64,000 nt of DNA, from contig OZ243917.1 in the NCBI GenBank assembly GCA_965213815.1, positions 1,694,385 to 1,758,384 on the forward strand. The letters are read 5' to 3'. The stretch is from Alphaproteobacteria bacterium (lineage in GTDB: Bacteria > Pseudomonadota > Alphaproteobacteria > SP197). The notes below the pieces were generated by a model. The model saw only the letters and a program-made list of their open reading frames with translations, did not search any database and was not told the origin of the DNA. Shown in pieces: positions 18,153 to 25,001 of the stretch. The translations under genes and the position numbers were made by a program. Positions within the stretch are counted from its first letter, which is position 1; each line of letters opens with the position of its first letter.

Positions 18153-18719
18153 TTACGCGAGCGCCTGGCGGATGCAGCGCGTCATGGCGGCGTGATCGCC
18201 CGCATTGGAGCGGCGCGAGGCGTCCAGCCAAGCGGCGCGATTGATGCGCGTGAGGTCGATGGCGTGGCCAGCGAGCGCGGCAAGCTGCTTCAAGTACTGG
18301 AGCTGCGTGCGACCGTTGCCCTCGCGGAATGGGTGAACGTGGTTGACGTCGCCCAGGACCGGACCCGCGCCCTCGGCAAACCCGTCCGGCCTCGATCCCC
18401 GGAAATACCCCGCCGCTGCGATACGGCGGTGAATGTCCGCCATGCCGGCCACAATGAACCGTCTCGGCTGGAATCGGCTCCCGCCCTTGGTGATTTCGAC
18501 GGTGCGAATTTCGCCCGCCCACCCATAGACGTCCTGGAACAGATGGCGGTGGATCGTCATCAGGTGGGCAAGATCGAAATCGCCCGCGGGCATGGGCTCG
18601 AGAAGGCGCTGGGCGACGAGCTCGCGCTCTGCCGCCTCCAGCGCCGGGGCGTCCCGGATGTCCAGCCTGTTGCGGAGAACGGTGTAGTCAGGCGGATAGC
18701 AGTAGTCGCGGTCGCTCAT
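18153..18719 (-). CDS. Fic domain protein (VbhT/FicT-like)
   Basis: YCYPP..VLRNRL, HPFREGNGRTQL; ATGA overlap with the upstream small gene. Confidence 0.9.
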   Translation of the reverse strand: MSDRDYCYPPDYTVLRNRLDIRDAPALEAAERELVAQRLLEPMPAGDFDLAHLMTIHRHLFQDVYGWAGEIRTVEITKGGSRFQPRRFIVAGMADIHRRIAAAGYFRGSRPDGFAEGAGPVLGDVNHVHPFREGNGRTQLQYLKQLAALAGHAIDLTRINRAAWLDASRRSNAGDHAAMTRCIRQALA

Positions 18720-18937
18720 TCCGCCGCGGCGACGCGACTGCGGTCCTCGATCCGACAGAGGATATGGGCGCGGCGACGCTCGGGCGACCATCCCTCGCGC
18801 TCGAACATCTCGAACATGGTGATCTCTTCCGCCGTCAGGGGATTGCCCTCGATCGCCTGCAAATGCGCGGCTTCGGCCAACAGCCGATCCGTGGCGACAC
18901 TCTCGACGGTACCGGAATCATGCGGCTTCCCGGACAT
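18716..18937 (-). CDS. VbhA-like antitoxin
   Basis: 73 aa, HLQAIEGNPL motif, translationally coupled to fic. Confidence 0.75.
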   Translation of the reverse strand: MSGKPHDSGTVESVATDRLLAEAAHLQAIEGNPLTAEEITMFEMFEREGWSPERRRAHILCRIEDRSRVAAAE

Positions 18938-19063
18938 GGTGCGACCTTATCACGTTGCGCCGGTGAAGGCGACAGGTACGAGGTCGTGATCAGCACGGCT
19001 GCCGGCAAGAGAATCGTGCTGCGCGAGAAGGGCTCCGGGGTCCGGATTCGGCGGGTTGCGCCG

Positions 19064-19726
19064 TTAGATCCTGGTCAATCGGATTTGACCGGCAGTATTG
19101 AGCCCCTGATGCCAGTTGCGGTCGGTCCAGTAGTTTCCTTCCAGCATCTTCGGACTACGCTCCAGCGGGATGGAGAGGCGTGCGGCGCCGAGATGGCGTT
19201 GACTATCGGTGCTCTTGGGTGCCGACACATGGCTGTCGTAGACGTAGAATAGGACTGGTTTGCGCTCGCCCTGGTGACGCTGCAGGGAACAGGTCAGCGT
19301 CTCGGAACTCAGGTACCTGTCGTCCATGGTCAAGGTCAGGTCGATTCGGGTGAGTCGTGCCGAAATCTTCGCCTTGCCCACGCGGTTGAACAACACTGGG
19401 GAGCCGTCGGAGGACGTATCGGGCTGGCGATCCGCGTTGCGGGCCTTGATGATGGACCAGTTCGAGGAGATTTCGACGGTGTACTCCGCGTCGATGTTCG
19501 GAAACACCCGCCACACACCCGGCAAGCCGCAGAGCCAGGGAAAGACGGACGTCTGGCCGACGAAGAAGACGAGGGCGGAGACCGCGATGACAGAGACGGA
19601 GACCTGGGAAACGACAGGCATGGGCGGCATCAACCCGAAGAGATCGGATGCGAGCGCGATGGCCAGAACTGCATTGACGCAAAGCAGAACTTTCAGGAAG
19701 CTGGTTAAACCCATGGAAGAGAACAT
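19064..19726 (-). CDS. cap15: CBASS effector, Cap15-like (2TM plus beta-strand-rich domain)
   Basis: Two N-terminal hydrophobic helices, FPNIDAEYTVEISSNW, EGNYWTDR beta-rich C-terminus; RBS AAGGAG; adjacent to the CD-NTase. Confidence 0.72.
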   Translation of the reverse strand: MFSSMGLTSFLKVLLCVNAVLAIALASDLFGLMPPMPVVSQVSVSVIAVSALVFFVGQTSVFPWLCGLPGVWRVFPNIDAEYTVEISSNWSIIKARNADRQPDTSSDGSPVLFNRVGKAKISARLTRIDLTLTMDDRYLSSETLTCSLQRHQGERKPVLFYVYDSHVSAPKSTDSQRHLGAARLSIPLERSPKMLEGNYWTDRNWHQGLNTAGQIRLTRI

Positions 19727-19802
19727 ATTGTCAATTCTCCTTGAACGAAGCGCGAACCGCTACCAGATATAGGGCAATGGACCTTGTAAAGGAACCGGCG
19801 GA

Positions 19803-21023
19803 ATGCACGGCACACTAAATGTTCACCGGGTTTTCATGGGCAGCCAGACGCGCCGCGGATACCTGGCTGCCCTGGGCCTGAAGGATGAACGGGCGGAATC
19901 GCTTCGCGAGGCCCGCGACCGAATTCGGAAACGGCTGCGGGAGGAGATGCCCGATTGGAACAGCGATGCGAAAGCGCGAAGCCTGGTTGAGTATCATTAC
20001 GTCGCGCTGGCGTTGCGGATGCCGAAGCTGAGTCCGAAATTCCGCATGCAGGGAAGCAGCGTTTACCACACGCTGAACTTCCCGGCCCACCTGCCGCCGC
20101 AGGAAGTGGACTTTGATGACGGCGTATTCCTGCCGACGTCTTTCGTCAACGGGGGCGGTTCCAACCGTCCGGTGGTGGCCTCCAGGGGCTATTTTGCGAT
20201 GGTCGAGGAGATTCTCGGGCCATTGTGTGCGGAGCGTGGCTGGGAACTCGACACGAGCAAGTCGAGTTGCGTCAGGGTCAGGATCGACGCGGAGGCGCAT
20301 GTCGATCTGGCGCTGTATGCCATCCCCGATGAAGAATTCACGAAATTGGCGGAAGCAAGGGCCTTGGCCATGGTGGCCAGGGGGCAAGGCGCGTCGGAAC
20401 TCGATTACGAACTCGCCGACGAAGTCTATAAGAGCCTGCTCGAAAAGCAGATCATGCTTGCGCACCGCGACAGCGGCTGGATTGAGTCGGACCCTCGCGA
20501 GATCGAAAACTGGTTTCTCGATGCCATCGCGGATCATGGCGAAGTGGTTCGGAGAATTTGCCGGTACCTCAAGGGCTGGCGCGATTTCCAGTGGATGCGG
20601 GGCGGGCCATCCTCGATCACGCTGATGGCGTGCGTGATTTCGGTATACGACGAGTTGAACGGCATGCTGCCGGAGAACCGTGACGATCTGGCTCTTCAGG
20701 CCGTGGCGGACCGGCTGGAAGCCTTGTTCTCGCACGCCATCCTCAATCCGGTGCTGCCGGATCAACAGTTGGACGAGAACTGGTCAGCTGAAGAACGGTT
20801 GGATTTCAAAGCGCGCGCGCGAGGGCTGAAGACGAAGATCAACACGGTGCTGAACCGGACCTTTCACAAGGCGGTCGCGATCGCGGAGCTGCGGGAGGGA
20901 TTCGGGGTGCGGATTCCGAACGACGAACTGCTGATCGACGTCGAGTCGGAGGAGCGCAGGGTGCGGGCGTACGCGCCCGCTGTCGTTACCGCCCCGGCCG
21001 TGCCCCGAACCACGTCGGGATGA
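19803..21023 (+). CDS. CBASS CD-NTase, DncV/CdnA-like
   Basis: QGSSVYHTLNFP..QEVDFDDGVFLP and HVDLALYAIP parallel the DncV motifs QGS..TLN..EMDIDDG and HIDVPMYAIP. Confidence 0.9.
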   Translation: MHGTLNVHRVFMGSQTRRGYLAALGLKDERAESLREARDRIRKRLREEMPDWNSDAKARSLVEYHYVALALRMPKLSPKFRMQGSSVYHTLNFPAHLPPQEVDFDDGVFLPTSFVNGGGSNRPVVASRGYFAMVEEILGPLCAERGWELDTSKSSCVRVRIDAEAHVDLALYAIPDEEFTKLAEARALAMVARGQGASELDYELADEVYKSLLEKQIMLAHRDSGWIESDPREIENWFLDAIADHGEVVRRICRYLKGWRDFQWMRGGPSSITLMACVISVYDELNGMLPENRDDLALQAVADRLEALFSHAILNPVLPDQQLDENWSAEERLDFKARARGLKTKINTVLNRTFHKAVAIAELREGFGVRIPNDELLIDVESEERRVRAYAPAVVTAPAVPRTTSG

Positions 21024-22705
21024 GTGTCGAAGGCGAGCGCACAAGAGACCTGTTCCGAACGCTCGCGCACAAGGGGTTCAGGCGAGACCGCTCGCAGACG
21101 GGAACGCACCGCTTCACAGGCAAGCTGTCGGTGGTCGGGCGAGAGGTCGGGGTCGCGATCGAATTTCGCGATCTCGAATTCACGCGCCTTCCGAAGCTCA
21201 CGCTTCTCAACCCGGACGATGAAGCCCCGGAGGTCGTGGCGCATCTCGAAGCGTCGGGCGTCCTCTGCTTCGCCAGCGACGAAGACCTCGTTCTCGACCG
21301 CTACGATGTCGGCGGGACCGCGCTGATGTGCTTGGGACTGGCTCGTCGCGGCCTGGAACGGGCGCTGACGCACAAGCGTCTGCAGGGGGAAATCGCGCAG
21401 GAATTTCCGCAGCACTGGCTCGGGAAGAGTTTCTACTACGACAGTTCAGGAACGGAGCATGCTCGCGCGAGGCTCTACAGCGTGCCGCGCGACGGCTCGC
21501 CTGCGCTGTTGTTCTTGGCCGATACGGACGAGAAGCTGAAGCGGCTGGTTCCGGGCAAAGCGGACCGGGGCCGGATCGGCGGCTCGTCGCGGCCTGCATT
21601 CGTCTTTCATTCGGGCAATGAACTGACATTCATGCCGGGGTATCGTCAGCCAAGGACGCTTGCGGAGTTTCTCGCATGGCTGGAGACCATGGTGCCGGGC
21701 GGGACGGAAAGGGCGCTTGAAGAGTTGTCTTCCGGATTTCCGGATGCGCCGGTGCCGTTGTTCGTCAGGGCGGAGAACGGTTGTGTCGGCATCTCGGTAG
21801 GCGCCAAGGAGCCCGTGCTCAGGGGAGCGCAGCGGCGGCAAGGATTCAGGCGCATCGCACAGACCAATGCCCACAGGGTGAAGTTAGAACGGCACAGCGG
21901 TACGCGTATCGACCTGCCCTCGATTTTCGGCAGGAACATGCACAAGCAGTCGCCTCTGACCGGTCGGCGTATTGCGCTGATCGGGTGTGGAACCATCGGC
22001 AGTCACCTCGCGAAATTCCTCGTCCAAACCGGCGCCGGGCAAGAAGGAGGCGCGCTCCTGCTTGTCGACAACCAGTTGTTCGAGCCCGGCAATGTGGGAC
22101 GGCACTATCTTGGCACGGCTAGGATCGGCGAGTGGAAGGCGGAGGCTGTGAAACAGGAGTTGCAGCTTCAGTTCGCGGAAGCACATGTCCGGGCGGTTAG
22201 AGCGGATGCCGAAGGGATGATTGTGAGCCTCGCCAGCTACGACCTGGTCGTGGATGCAACCGGCGAAGAAGCTCTGTCCCTGGCGCTCAATCACGGTTTC
22301 ATAGCGCGTCGCAGGGAAGAGGAGCGCGTACCCGACGTCATCCATGTCTGGTTGTTCGGCAATGGGGCTGCCGGCCAGGCCCTGCTCGTGGACGGACCGC
22401 AATTTGCTTGCTTCAAATGCCTGAAGCCGGACCATGAGGGCCAATGGCGCTTCAATCCGCTGAAGTCCGGGACTACGGTCGAGCCGACGGCTGCGGCTTG
22501 CGGTGAAGCGCAGTACATCGCTTACGGAGTGGCGGCGCCGGCGATGGCAGCGGCGCTGGGGCTTCAACTCGTGCTGGACTGGAATGGCGGTAATCCGGGG
22601 CCGAGGCTGAGGACAGTCAGGGTTGAGAAAAAAGCTACAGTCGAAGTCAAGGACAGGAATCCGCAGCCGTCGGATCGTTGTCCGGCCTGCGCTGGCTCGC
22701 GGTAA
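21020..22705 (+). CDS. cap2: CBASS Cap2 (E2-E1/ThiF fusion)
   Basis: N-terminal E2-like HLEASGVLCF, GCGTIGS, CFKC, AACGE, CPAC; 4-bp overlap with the CD-NTase. Confidence 0.88.
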   Translation: MSVEGERTRDLFRTLAHKGFRRDRSQTGTHRFTGKLSVVGREVGVAIEFRDLEFTRLPKLTLLNPDDEAPEVVAHLEASGVLCFASDEDLVLDRYDVGGTALMCLGLARRGLERALTHKRLQGEIAQEFPQHWLGKSFYYDSSGTEHARARLYSVPRDGSPALLFLADTDEKLKRLVPGKADRGRIGGSSRPAFVFHSGNELTFMPGYRQPRTLAEFLAWLETMVPGGTERALEELSSGFPDAPVPLFVRAENGCVGISVGAKEPVLRGAQRRQGFRRIAQTNAHRVKLERHSGTRIDLPSIFGRNMHKQSPLTGRRIALIGCGTIGSHLAKFLVQTGAGQEGGALLLVDNQLFEPGNVGRHYLGTARIGEWKAEAVKQELQLQFAEAHVRAVRADAEGMIVSLASYDLVVDATGEEALSLALNHGFIARRREEERVPDVIHVWLFGNGAAGQALLVDGPQFACFKCLKPDHEGQWRFNPLKSGTTVEPTAAACGEAQYIAYGVAAPAMAAALGLQLVLDWNGGNPGPRLRTVRVEKKATVEVKDRNPQPSDRCPACAGSR

Positions 22706-23186
22706 ACGCGAAGGGGTCGAATACGCTCTATTCCGCCATGAAGTGTGTGGATTCTTCGACAGAGTAAGGCGTGCCTGCGCCGAGGGGGTTGAGCGCGGGG
22801 GAATCCTGATCGGCTCCTACCGGGGGCCGCATATAGAGGTTGTCGATTGGACCGAGCCAGGTACCGCCGACAAGGCGACGCTGTCGTCGTTTACACGGCA
22901 GGACGAGCGGCATCAGGAGGCTGCGACCGAGGCTTGGCACAAGTCGCAACACAGGCAGACTTACGTGGGCGAATGGCACAGCCATCCTTTCGGCGGACCG
23001 GTCCCGTCCGGGATGGATAGAAGGGCGTGGCGGTCCGTGGTGGCGAAACTGAGAGTGCCGTGCCTGTTCGTGGTGGTGTCTCCGGCTGGATGGCAGGCGT
23101 TTCGGGTTCAACGCTTTACGACGGCAGCCGAAATGGTGCGTTTGGTTGAGAGCGAGAATGGGAGCACAGGTGTCGTTTTTCGATAG
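22623..23186 (+). CDS. cap3: CBASS Cap3 JAB/MPN isopeptidase
   Basis: ERGGILIG, YVGEWHSHP...PSGMD JAB motif; start uncertain. Confidence 0.85.
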   Translation: MRKKLQSKSRTGIRSRRIVVRPALARGKREGVEYALFRHEVCGFFDRVRRACAEGVERGGILIGSYRGPHIEVVDWTEPGTADKATLSSFTRQDERHQEAATEAWHKSQHRQTYVGEWHSHPFGGPVPSGMDRRAWRSVVAKLRVPCLFVVVSPAGWQAFRVQRFTTAAEMVRLVESENGSTGVVFR

Positions 23187-23402
23187 GCAGAATGGAAGCA
23201 CGATGGCGGGTTATCGAGAGCAGAATCAGCGAAAGCACTGTCCTCCGGGCGTCGTCACGATACGGGTCCTCGTCCCGGATTCTGACAGTACGGCTGCGCG
23301 GCAACGCGGGCGGCGGGCGGGTACGCTCAGACCGTCTCGGACGTGGCAACGCGCAGCTTGCTGTCGTGCGCCGGCAACCGTGTCCGGCTGCCGGGGTTGG
23401 AT

Positions 23403-24406
23403 TCACGATTGTGAAGCCGGCGGGGAAGCGAGATTCGCCTCGGTCTCCAAGGCTCGAACTCGCTCGATGAGCGTGTCGAACGCCGGTGCGCCGTCGCCGA
23501 CGATGCGGGCGCCGCGCATGGCATCGTAGTCTGATTGCAGGGCGGGGAGCTGGTCGTCGTCGGGAACGAGACGCAGCCGGCCGTCGAGGCAGCGATCGTA
23601 GTTGGCGTTGCCGGCGTGGAAGAACACCGTCTTGTGCCGGACGACGTCCGCCAGAAGCGTCCGGTTGGCGAGGGCGGCGCGGCCGACAGGGTGGGCGGCG
23701 AGGCACGCAAGATCGAACCAGTGCCGGGAGAGCCGGTCGGGCCTGTTCGTGAGCCGGCGGCGGTGGCAGGCGGCGTGGATGAGCGTCGCCTTCTCCCAGA
23801 AGGTGCGCGCCGGCGAAAGGACCGTCACGGTCGCCGCCGGATAATCCAGGCCATCGGTCAGGGCGGCCATGTCGGGCACGATCGCGTGGCGCTCGTTCGG
23901 GTCGATGACGTTGCGGCCGCCGAACTCCAGCAGGACCTCTTTCGCGATATAGCTGTCGGGCGCCTCGACCGCGGACGGATAGGCGAAGCGGACGGTCTCG
24001 CCGTCGTCGCCGACATGGACGGCGTAGCGGCCGTCGGCTGCGAGGCGCCAGGCGGCATCGTCGAGGGCGGGCGCGACGACGTTGCGGACATGGCTTACGA
24101 CCCGGCCCCCGAGGCGTTTGCTGAACCGTCTGATTGCGGTGCGGCTGGCGCCTTCGTCGAAGGGGTCGAAACCGTCGTCGAAGGCGCGGTAGTCGAGGGT
24201 GACGTCCACGTCCTCGGAGAACCGGGCGATGTGCCGCCCTTGAAGGCCATCGGATGGGGGTCGGGCATGGAGAAGAGGGCGTCGAGAACCCAGCACACCC
24301 AGATGTCCTTCTCCAGGACGACGGCGGATCGCCTGGCATTGGCGGCAAAGGTGCGGAGGATGTCGGCGCGCTCGCCCGCGCCGAGGGAAAGAAACGGCTC
24401 AGCCAT
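23403..24406 (-). pseudogene. AbiEii-family nucleotidyltransferase toxin with frameshifting internal deletion
   Basis: LEKDIWV..FKGGTS in one frame, RFSEDVDVT..RTFWEKATL in another; the residues normally between them are missing (junction near 24228). Confidence 0.85.
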
Positions 24407-25001
24407 GGGCCGGCTCCCGGGCGGCGGCGAACGCCTTCTGCATCCAGGCGGGCATGTCGGCGGAGCACAGCTTCTCGAACTCGGCCGGGCTGAGGGCGGC
24501 CTCGATGGTGGCGACGGTTTCCGGTGTCACAGTGTCCTTGCCGAGATGCCAGAGGGCGGAAATGGCGGCGCCGGTCGGCTCGCCCGCGAATTGCAGCCGG
24601 CGGCGGTTCGCAGTGTGGACCATGCGCACGGCAGTGCCGGCGATCCGGATCGTGCGGGTCGAGCCGCTGGTATGGAACACGGGCGCGGTCGGCACCTGGG
24701 TGCTGAGCCGGAAGCGCCTCGCCGCTTCGGCGCCGTGGATCTGGAGCGTCTCACCGTTGCCACGCGCGATCGCCTCGACGACCTCGTGGAAGTCGGGAAT
24801 TACGGCCCCGACGAACCGGCTGATCCTCGGTCGAACGAAGACGCCGTGGGCGAGACGCCGGATCTCGCCGTCCGCGGCGAGGCGGGAAAGAGTCCGGTCG
24901 ACGGCTCCTCGGGTGCCGAGCTTCAGGAAGCGGGTGCCGGTGAAGGGCCTGCCCCGGGGCAGCTTTCGTATGGCGGCTCGAACGGCCTTCGCAGTCGACA
25001 T
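24399..25001 (-). CDS. AbiEi-like type IV antitoxin (DUF6088-like)
   Basis: GTRGAVDRTLSRL wHTH, GAEAARRFRLSTQVP; overlaps the toxin start. Confidence 0.8.
   Translation of the reverse strand: MSTAKAVRAAIRKLPRGRPFTGTRFLKLGTRGAVDRTLSRLAADGEIRRLAHGVFVRPRISRFVGAVIPDFHEVVEAIARGNGETLQIHGAEAARRFRLSTQVPTAPVFHTSGSTRTIRIAGTAVRMVHTANRRRLQFAGEPTGAAISALWHLGKDTVTPETVATIEAALSPAEFEKLCSADMPAWMQKAFAAAREPAHG

Follow-up and report, generated by a model that had tools for sequence, protein, structure and literature searches.

A Type II CBASS with a Divergently Transcribed Cap15-like Effector Follows the Standard Layout of a Mostly Alphaproteobacterial Branch of Clade-A Systems

The type II antiphage signaling systems based on cyclic oligonucleotides (CBASS) of Vibrio cholerae and Escherichia coli TW11681 have the gene order capV-dncV-cap2-cap3, in which the gene of the effector, the patatin phospholipase CapV, is the first of the operon. 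Another CBASS effector, the membrane protein Cap15 (S-2TM-beta), is represented by the proteins of Yersinia aleksiciae (PDB 7N34/7N35), Escherichia albertii (DancE-Cap15), and Staphylococcus schleiferi (CdnE03-Cap15). The studied examples of Cap15 come from type I systems of two genes whose cyclases are different (bioRxiv 10.64898/2026.10.06.757031; PMC10686824), and the ligands of the characterized Cap15 proteins are uracil-containing dinucleotides or cyclic di-AMP (c-di-AMP) (PMC10419184; bioRxiv 10.64898/2026.10.06.757031). In CBASS regulated by CapW or CapH/CapP, a gene is placed divergently across a short intergenic region (bioRxiv 10.1101/2022.01.04.474952; 10.1101/2022.04.27.489752). 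A similar geometry was found in the genome of an Alphaproteobacteria bacterium (assembly GCA_965213815.1). The analyzed stretch of 64,000 nucleotides (contig OZ243917.1, positions 1,694,385 to 1,758,384), hereafter the window, covers 1.69–1.76 Mb of a single 3.85-Mb contig, and its positions 19064–23186 contain a type II CBASS with a Cap15-like effector. In this locus, unlike the CapW- and CapH/CapP-regulated systems, the divergent gene is that of the effector itself, and there is no linked transcription factor gene.

According to the list of open reading frames (ORFs) and the reading of the sequence, the locus comprises four intact ORFs. The cap15 gene (19064..19726, minus strand; 220 aa) is separated by a spacer of 76 bp (19727..19802) from the cdn gene of a cGAS/DncV-like nucleotidyltransferase, or CD-NTase (19803..21023, plus strand; 406 aa), which is followed by cap2 (21020..22705, plus strand; 561 aa) and cap3 (22623..23186, plus strand; 187 aa). 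The stop codon of cdn and the start codon of cap2 overlap in the sequence ATGA, and the overlap of cap2 and cap3 is 83 nt. The cap3 gene begins with TTG at 22623, which is the sole in-frame start upstream of its conserved core and is preceded by GAGGA at a distance of 9 nt. An initial annotation, made from the letters alone, had described a cap15-like gene on the minus strand and cdnA-like, cap2, and cap3 genes on the plus strand; the ORFs and the Pfam, PADLOC, and NCBIfam profiles led to the same assignment, and the family matches of the four ORFs lie far beyond chance level. The system resembles those of V. cholerae and E. coli TW11681 in its clade-A DncV-like cyclase, the E2-E1 fusion of Cap2, the JAB motifs of Cap3, and the glycine C-terminus of the cyclase, but its effector is a divergently encoded Cap15, whereas theirs is CapV at the head of the operon.

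The initial annotation had presented this divergence of effector and cyclase as an exception among CBASS. The survey of related loci showed the opposite: the pairs of Cap15 and cyclase genes were divergent in 20 of the 21 related loci, as were 24 of the 27 type II systems sampled, in which the identity of the cyclase to that of the window ranged from 91% to 34–36%. All related loci retrieved with Cap15 together with Cap2/Cap3 were divergent. A search of the genome collection seeded with the Cap15 alignment returned 18 loci, and a Cap15 homologue located beside a cyclase gene was divergent in 12 of 12 cases (L002–L005, L008, L010, L011, L013, and L015–L018). Cap2/Cap3 are present in ten of these 12 loci (L002–L005, L008, L010, L011, L013, L015, and L016), and two Allosphingosinicella loci among the 12 have a different DncV-like/SMODS cyclase. 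In addition, four metagenome contigs (L034–L037) encode Cap15 homologues that are 58–92% identical to that of the window, and all four are divergent. A class-level genome search with the cyclase gave a match in only 2 of 401 genomes, so that the system is sparse and the search is of no use for statistics; in the other cyclase-bearing genome of this search (L025) the layout is also divergent, and the partner shows a clear match to PF18153.

The same layout was noted on plasmids. Divergent Cap15 genes were found in plasmid loci of Sulfitobacter, Sphingobium, and Paracoccus (in the latter, cap15 is truncated by an insertion sequence, IS), and a divergent gene of the CapV phospholipase in plasmid loci of Aminobacter, Rhizobium etli, Methylobacterium, and Bradyrhizobium and on two Agrobacterium plasmids. 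Alphaproteobacterial plasmid systems annotated in RefSeq (Sphingobium baderi NZ_CP128178.1, Sulfitobacter sp. CB2047 NZ_CP072616.1, Rhizobium etli Mim1 NC_021909.1, and Agrobacterium pAt plasmids) share with the window the gene set and the divergent effector, separated by a spacer of 61–191 bp, but the identity of their cyclases to that of the window is 34–41%, and several of them have CapV instead of Cap15. The Cap15-type effectors in these plasmid records carry the PGAP/RefSeq label "hypothetical protein". As for co-directional type II systems with the order capV-cdn-cap2-cap3, they were found in the beta- and gammaproteobacteria Paraburkholderia, Burkholderia gladioli, and Acinetobacter pittii, and the one co-directional pair of Cap15 and cyclase belongs to a type I system of Shewanella. 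The Paraburkholderia relative has a WYL regulator gene in the divergent position. Of all these loci, those of Sulfitobacter, Sphingobium, and Shewanella were retrieved with Cap15 as the query, and the others, including the co-directional type II systems, with the cyclase.

A maximum-likelihood phylogenetic tree was constructed for 26 CD-NTases. The cyclase of the window fell into a clade of ten sequences (support 97/97), all of them with divergent Cap15, and the clades neighboring it have either divergent Cap15 or divergent CapV. The co-directional Paraburkholderia system is sister to a clade with divergent CapV, and a minimum of two to three changes of orientation is required on the tree. The divergent layout is old, conserved, and independent of the effector type; a divergent effector is the inherited standard of a mostly alphaproteobacterial branch of clade-A type II CBASS and no peculiarity of the window locus. 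The initial annotation therefore holds in its identification of a type II CBASS with a divergent Cap15-like effector, and fails in regarding the layout as unusual; it had itself named a divergent arrangement already widespread in the clade as evidence against its view, and the survey found exactly that. Its warning that operon-based finders may miss such an effector also appears weak, since the full length of Cap15 is matched by the CBASS effector profile of PADLOC. Both PADLOC and DefenseFinder use the proximity of genes as the criterion and are not known to use their strand. The interest of the result may lie at the level of the branch, which is sizeable and in which the effector (Cap15 or CapV) regularly forms a separate divergent transcription unit. 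When "CBASS operons" are cloned from such bacteria, the upstream divergent gene and the entire spacer should be taken in. The locus itself adds little, being one further intact CBASS in a defence island.

The effector was identified by a combination of profile and fold comparisons. The cap15 product matched the PADLOC CBASS "2TM" effector model PDLC00679 over its full length (E 8.5e-51), and given this match the Cap15 effector family is already catalogued. The score with Pfam PF18153 (Cap15_CD_rec) was borderline, 30.2 bits at a cut-off of 31.2. A search of the host genome for the same Pfam family gave zero matches, missing the known cap15 itself, and is uninformative. The profile of Cap15 relatives found no Cap15 among PDB sequences, and the fold comparison was therefore needed. 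The AlphaFold2 model of the protein, built with 24 homologues as input (pLDDT 79.9), contains helices at about residues 5–26 and 37–57, followed by a beta domain of approximately eight strands. Kyte-Doolittle analysis revealed two hydrophobic peaks with centers near residues 13–25 and 44–56. The top three Foldseek matches of the model in the PDB were to the Cap15 receptor domain of Yersinia aleksiciae, 7N34/7N35 (E 3.9e-5, probability 1.00, target-normalized TM 0.78), with a sequence identity of only about 20% between the window protein and 7N34. Thus, the profile check of Cap15 proposed in the initial annotation was positive by the PADLOC model and by the fold, and borderline in Pfam. The model, hydropathy, and Foldseek data together show the two N-terminal transmembrane helices and the C-terminal minimal beta-barrel receptor domain, predicted to bind cyclic dinucleotides, that characterize Cap15. 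The two transmembrane helices, the small barrel, and the linkage to a CD-NTase are shared with the Cap15 effectors named above; in contrast to those studied examples of two-gene type I systems, the Cap15 of the window is paired with a clade-A cyclase regulated by Cap2/Cap3.

The cdn product contains the Pfam domains PF21654 (DncV-like_NTFase) and PF21713 (DncV_C) and matches the PADLOC cyclase model (1.4e-129). It also passed the cut-off of the NCBIfam equivalog NF041078 "CBASS cGAMP synthase" (321 bits, cut-off 150), and its predicted function is that of a cyclic GMP-AMP (cGAMP) synthase. The closest solved structure is DncV of V. cholerae (4u03, E 4.7e-40), and the cyclase was assigned to clade A on this basis. 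The active site is intact: in the alignment, the catalytic residues of DncV have G84-S85, D103, D105, and D168 as their counterparts. The C-terminal tail ends in ...VPRTTSG, with Gly as the last residue, which fits C-terminal conjugation by Cap2. The Cap2-linked cyclases of the set have a comparable variable tail with G at the terminal position in 22 of 24 rows and A in the remaining two, and the ...TSG/SQSG ending is kept across relatives. Conjugation of the CD-NTase C-terminus by Cap2 was reportedly established for homologues by Ledvina and by Jenson in 2023.

Cap2 is an E2-E1 fusion predicted to conjugate the C-terminus of the CD-NTase; it contains the Pfam domains Prok-E2_B and ThiF, matches the PADLOC E1-E2 model (1.1e-132), and has the Cap2 structures 7tsq/7to3 as its closest solved relatives. 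Among 15 relatives, H75, C83, G322/G324/G327, R361, and C494 show no variation, and the two CxxC pairs (464/467 and 554/557) show little or none. The adenylation motif GxGxxG is located at 322–327, and, judging by position, C83 and C494 are the putative catalytic cysteines of E2 and E1. Cap3 is a JAB/JAMM isopeptidase according to the matches with Pfam Prok-JAB (1.8e-13, 50.8 bits, cut-off 25) and the PADLOC JAB model (2.1e-33); the match with the NCBIfam Cap3 equivalog NF050170 (E 8e-24, 84.6 bits) was below the cut-off of 200. The protein also aligns to PDB 9ild, and its JAMM motif is intact (E57, H119-x-H121-x7-S129-xx-D132). The locus thus combines the features of a type II CBASS, namely, a CD-NTase active site, Cap2, Cap3, a C-terminus suited to conjugation, and a linked effector with a sensor domain.

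Taken together, these data make it highly probable that the locus is a canonical type II CBASS, an abortive-infection system that is apparently functional and belongs to a chromosomal defence island, and whose divergent effector is the standard of its branch. By analogy with homologues, Cap2 would adenylate the C-terminal Gly of the CD-NTase and conjugate the enzyme to a target, leaving it primed, and Cap3 would reverse this conjugation. Upon phage infection, the cyclase would produce a cyclic dinucleotide, most likely 3'3'-cGAMP; this product is probable because of the NF041078 equivalog match and because the effectors of sister systems are annotated as "cGAMP-activated phospholipase". Binding of the nucleotide by the beta-barrel of Cap15 would then cause oligomerization via the two membrane helices and disruption of the inner membrane, which may kill the cell before phage release. 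Work on homologues said to underlie these steps is that of Cohen in 2019, Duncan-Lowey in 2021, and Ledvina and Jenson in 2023. Each of the two transcription units must have its own promoter within or beside the short spacer.

Several points weigh against this interpretation. The product of the cyclase and the ligand of Cap15 are read only from family membership; the ligand is the weakest link, and cGAMP is not assured, since the characterized Cap15 proteins bind uracil-containing dinucleotides or c-di-AMP. The layout survey was seeded by homology to the window locus and covers a few dozen loci, so that it is no census. A simple scan for sigma-70 consensus promoters and for terminators detected nothing in the spacer. 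As for novelty, the type of the system and its protein families are known, and so is the Cap15 family in its role of a CBASS effector. A full-text literature search, whose coverage did not extend to the main classification and Cap15 papers, found no paper discussing divergent CBASS effectors.

The spacer was described in the initial annotation as an intergenic region of 76 bp with a ribosome-binding site (RBS) on each side and no regulator gene in between, and all of this was found in the sequence. The RBS of cap15 is CTCCTT at 19737–19742 (AAGGAG in the cap15 sense), 10 nt before the cap15 ATG, and that of cdn is AAGGA at 19789–19793, with the cdn ATG 9 nt further on. The interval 19727–19802 contains no ORF, and an Rfam scan of 18900–23400 gave no RNA family match. 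Since the units are divergent, cap15 has its own promoter, which is a trivial consequence of the geometry; both promoters presumably belong to the spacer. A length of 76 bp is too short for two complete back-to-back promoters with their leaders, and the two would therefore overlap or reach into the neighboring coding sequences. In the intergenic alignment, the best-conserved block other than the RBSs is an AT-rich core, CTATATCTGGTAG in the window (19760..19772, minus strand, in the cap15 sense), which starts 33 nt upstream of the cap15 ATG. TATA-type elements resembling it occur at the same relative position in more distant loci. This core probably marks the promoter region; it is the best candidate for a promoter element and a candidate −10 region of one or both divergent promoters.

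A perfect inverted repeat of 10 nt was noted at 19838–19872, inside cdn (codons 12–24), with the arms GGGCAGCCAG and CTGGCTGCCC 15 nt apart. The nearest relatives L003 and L034 retain it, L002 has a weakened form, and L004, L005, L035, and L037 have lost it. Being retained only in near relatives, it is probably non-functional.

Why the branch keeps the effector divergent may be explained in different ways. It is a possibility of almost even weight that the layout is a neutral accident of the lineage, and that an effector at the edge of the system, in its own unit, can be exchanged by recombination while cdn-cap2-cap3 remains undisturbed. Such an origin is consistent with sister CD-NTase clades having Cap15 or CapV in the same divergent slot, with an orientation that changed at least twice on the tree, and with the piecemeal decay seen in related loci (L013 and L035 carry IS insertions, cdn is split in L036, and cdn-cap2 is deleted from L001 and L009). 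However, a divergent slot is unnecessary for exchange, because effector swaps are free in co-directional CBASS as well, as Millman reportedly noted in 2020, and some constraint is suggested by the strictly kept length of the spacer in the close clade.

This length bears on a second, rather doubtful explanation, that the layout is a selected regulatory device, in which overlapping back-to-back promoters would control the amount of the toxic effector apart from that of the sensor module or would couple the two units by making them compete for RNA polymerase or share an operator. The initial annotation had already proposed a separate control of the toxic effector by a bidirectional promoter. The short spacer varies little in length: 74–83 nt in the close clade (76 nt in L002, L003, L004, and L034; 74 nt in L037; 83 nt in L005), in addition to the plasmid range given above, with 246 nt in the metagenome locus L035, where the system is disrupted by IS66. 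The distance of the AT-rich core from the cap15 ATG is fixed, and in two loci the core is a perfect 12-bp palindrome (ACTATATATAGT in L004 and CCCTATATAGGG in L019). Moreover, the layout is retained across cyclases down to 34–36% identity and across the effector swap. On the other hand, conservation of a layout alone is no proof of regulation. The cores of the window and its nearest relatives are not palindromic, and there is no inverted repeat within the window spacer. No enrichment of the core was found in the rest of the genome (3 matches, compared with 14 of the reversed control), a result that speaks against a regulon. A linked regulator gene is absent, and the consensus scan mentioned above found no promoter in the spacer.

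A bolder variant, which we regard as improbable, is that the spacer with its AT-rich, sometimes palindromic core is a dedicated control element of this mostly alphaproteobacterial type II CBASS branch. It would act through overlapping promoters or as an operator for a factor encoded elsewhere, and would either set the ratio of effector to sensor or switch on both units upon infection. If true, the branch would have a mode of regulation that differs from the CapW and CapH/CapP repressors, and the survival of the layout through the swaps between Cap15 and CapV would be explained as well.

It is very improbable that the minus-strand gene is an independent Cap15-type module, an orphan or a Panoptes-type effector that merely neighbors the CBASS: Cap15-like genes without a CD-NTase do exist (in a sulfur-assimilation operon of L006 and L038, beside a Cas6-like gene in L007, and in L012, which has no cyclase) and mCpol-Cap15 pairs also abut CBASS, as in L019, but the window system has no other effector gene and adjoins no gene of mCpol or of another small cyclase, and the pairing of Cap15 with the cyclase is retained in 20 of 21 loci over deep divergence, so that this candidate was rejected.

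The reading of the locus as a canonical CBASS in a defence island agrees with its surroundings. The neighbors of the system are a gene of a Fic/VbhT-like toxin, one AbiEii/DUF6088 and one ABC-ATPase pair, and remnants of IS21, and the region is a defence island. No gene of a CapW, CapH, or CapP-type regulator was found around the CBASS of the window.

The gene of the Fic/VbhT-like toxin (18153–18937; PF02661; NF045983 with E 1.6e-38, below the cut-off) overlaps an upstream ORF of 73 codons. Both are located on the cap15 strand, where the pair starts 126 nt past the cap15 stop codon; they probably constitute a separate toxin-antitoxin pair. On the other side of the system, the AbiEii toxin gene (PF08843) and the DUF6088 gene (23403–25001) are convergent with cap3. 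The same pair also flanks the CBASS in L034, a relative with 92% identity, and the two systems therefore seem to travel together.

Cap15-type proteins were also noted in other genomic surroundings. In Methyloceanibacter marginalis (L006:5065–7636) and in an independent JGI metagenome contig (L038:3149–5684), a Cap15-like gene with approximately 50% identity to that of the window, with no cyclase nearby, is the last gene of a housekeeping-looking operon, after the genes of the peroxiredoxin AhpC and a Cys/Met PLP enzyme; the protein of L038 has no Pfam match on record. In Roseospira marina (L007:5529–7633), a Cap15-like gene (43% identity) and a gene encoding a Cas6 domain (PF10040, E 2e-8) form a divergent pair, and no CD-NTase was detected within 7 kb.

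Other Cap15-type genes adjoin CBASS as members of further pairs. The Sulfitobacter plasmid NZ_CP072616.1 (L019:5764–7561) carries a Panoptes-type pair consisting of mCpol (PF18182, E 3e-23) and a second Cap15-type protein (PF18153, E 5e-19). The pair is convergent with the CBASS cap15 and located 18 bp from its 3' end, so that two Cap15-type effectors with different signal makers stand side by side. In addition, on the Agrobacterium plasmids (L022:5290–6498 and L023:5290–6498) and the Rhizobium etli plasmid (L027:1787–2823), a gene of a small protein (147–160 aa, no Pfam match) is followed by that of a Cap15-type protein. These pairs directly adjoin the divergent CapV of a type II CBASS and may represent Panoptes- or PanDA-type guard modules.

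As for the integrity of related systems, several of them are damaged. In a complete chromosome of a Pseudomonadales metagenome-assembled genome (L013:2141–8086), insertions of approximately 2 kb are present in the cyclase gene (between residues 255 and 256) and in cap15 (near residue 180), so that sensor and effector are both knocked out. In L001:6519–7663 and L009:6716–7222, which lack cdn and cap2, a cap3 remnant directly abuts cap15, and the cap15 of L009 is reduced to its last 74 codons. The two loci resemble what deletions in the same system would leave behind. Close relatives show further piecemeal decay: in L035:995–4754, an IS66 element (TnpB and a DDE transposase) is located between cdn and cap2, and in L036:3705–4925, cdn is broken into fragments of 325 and 50 codons.

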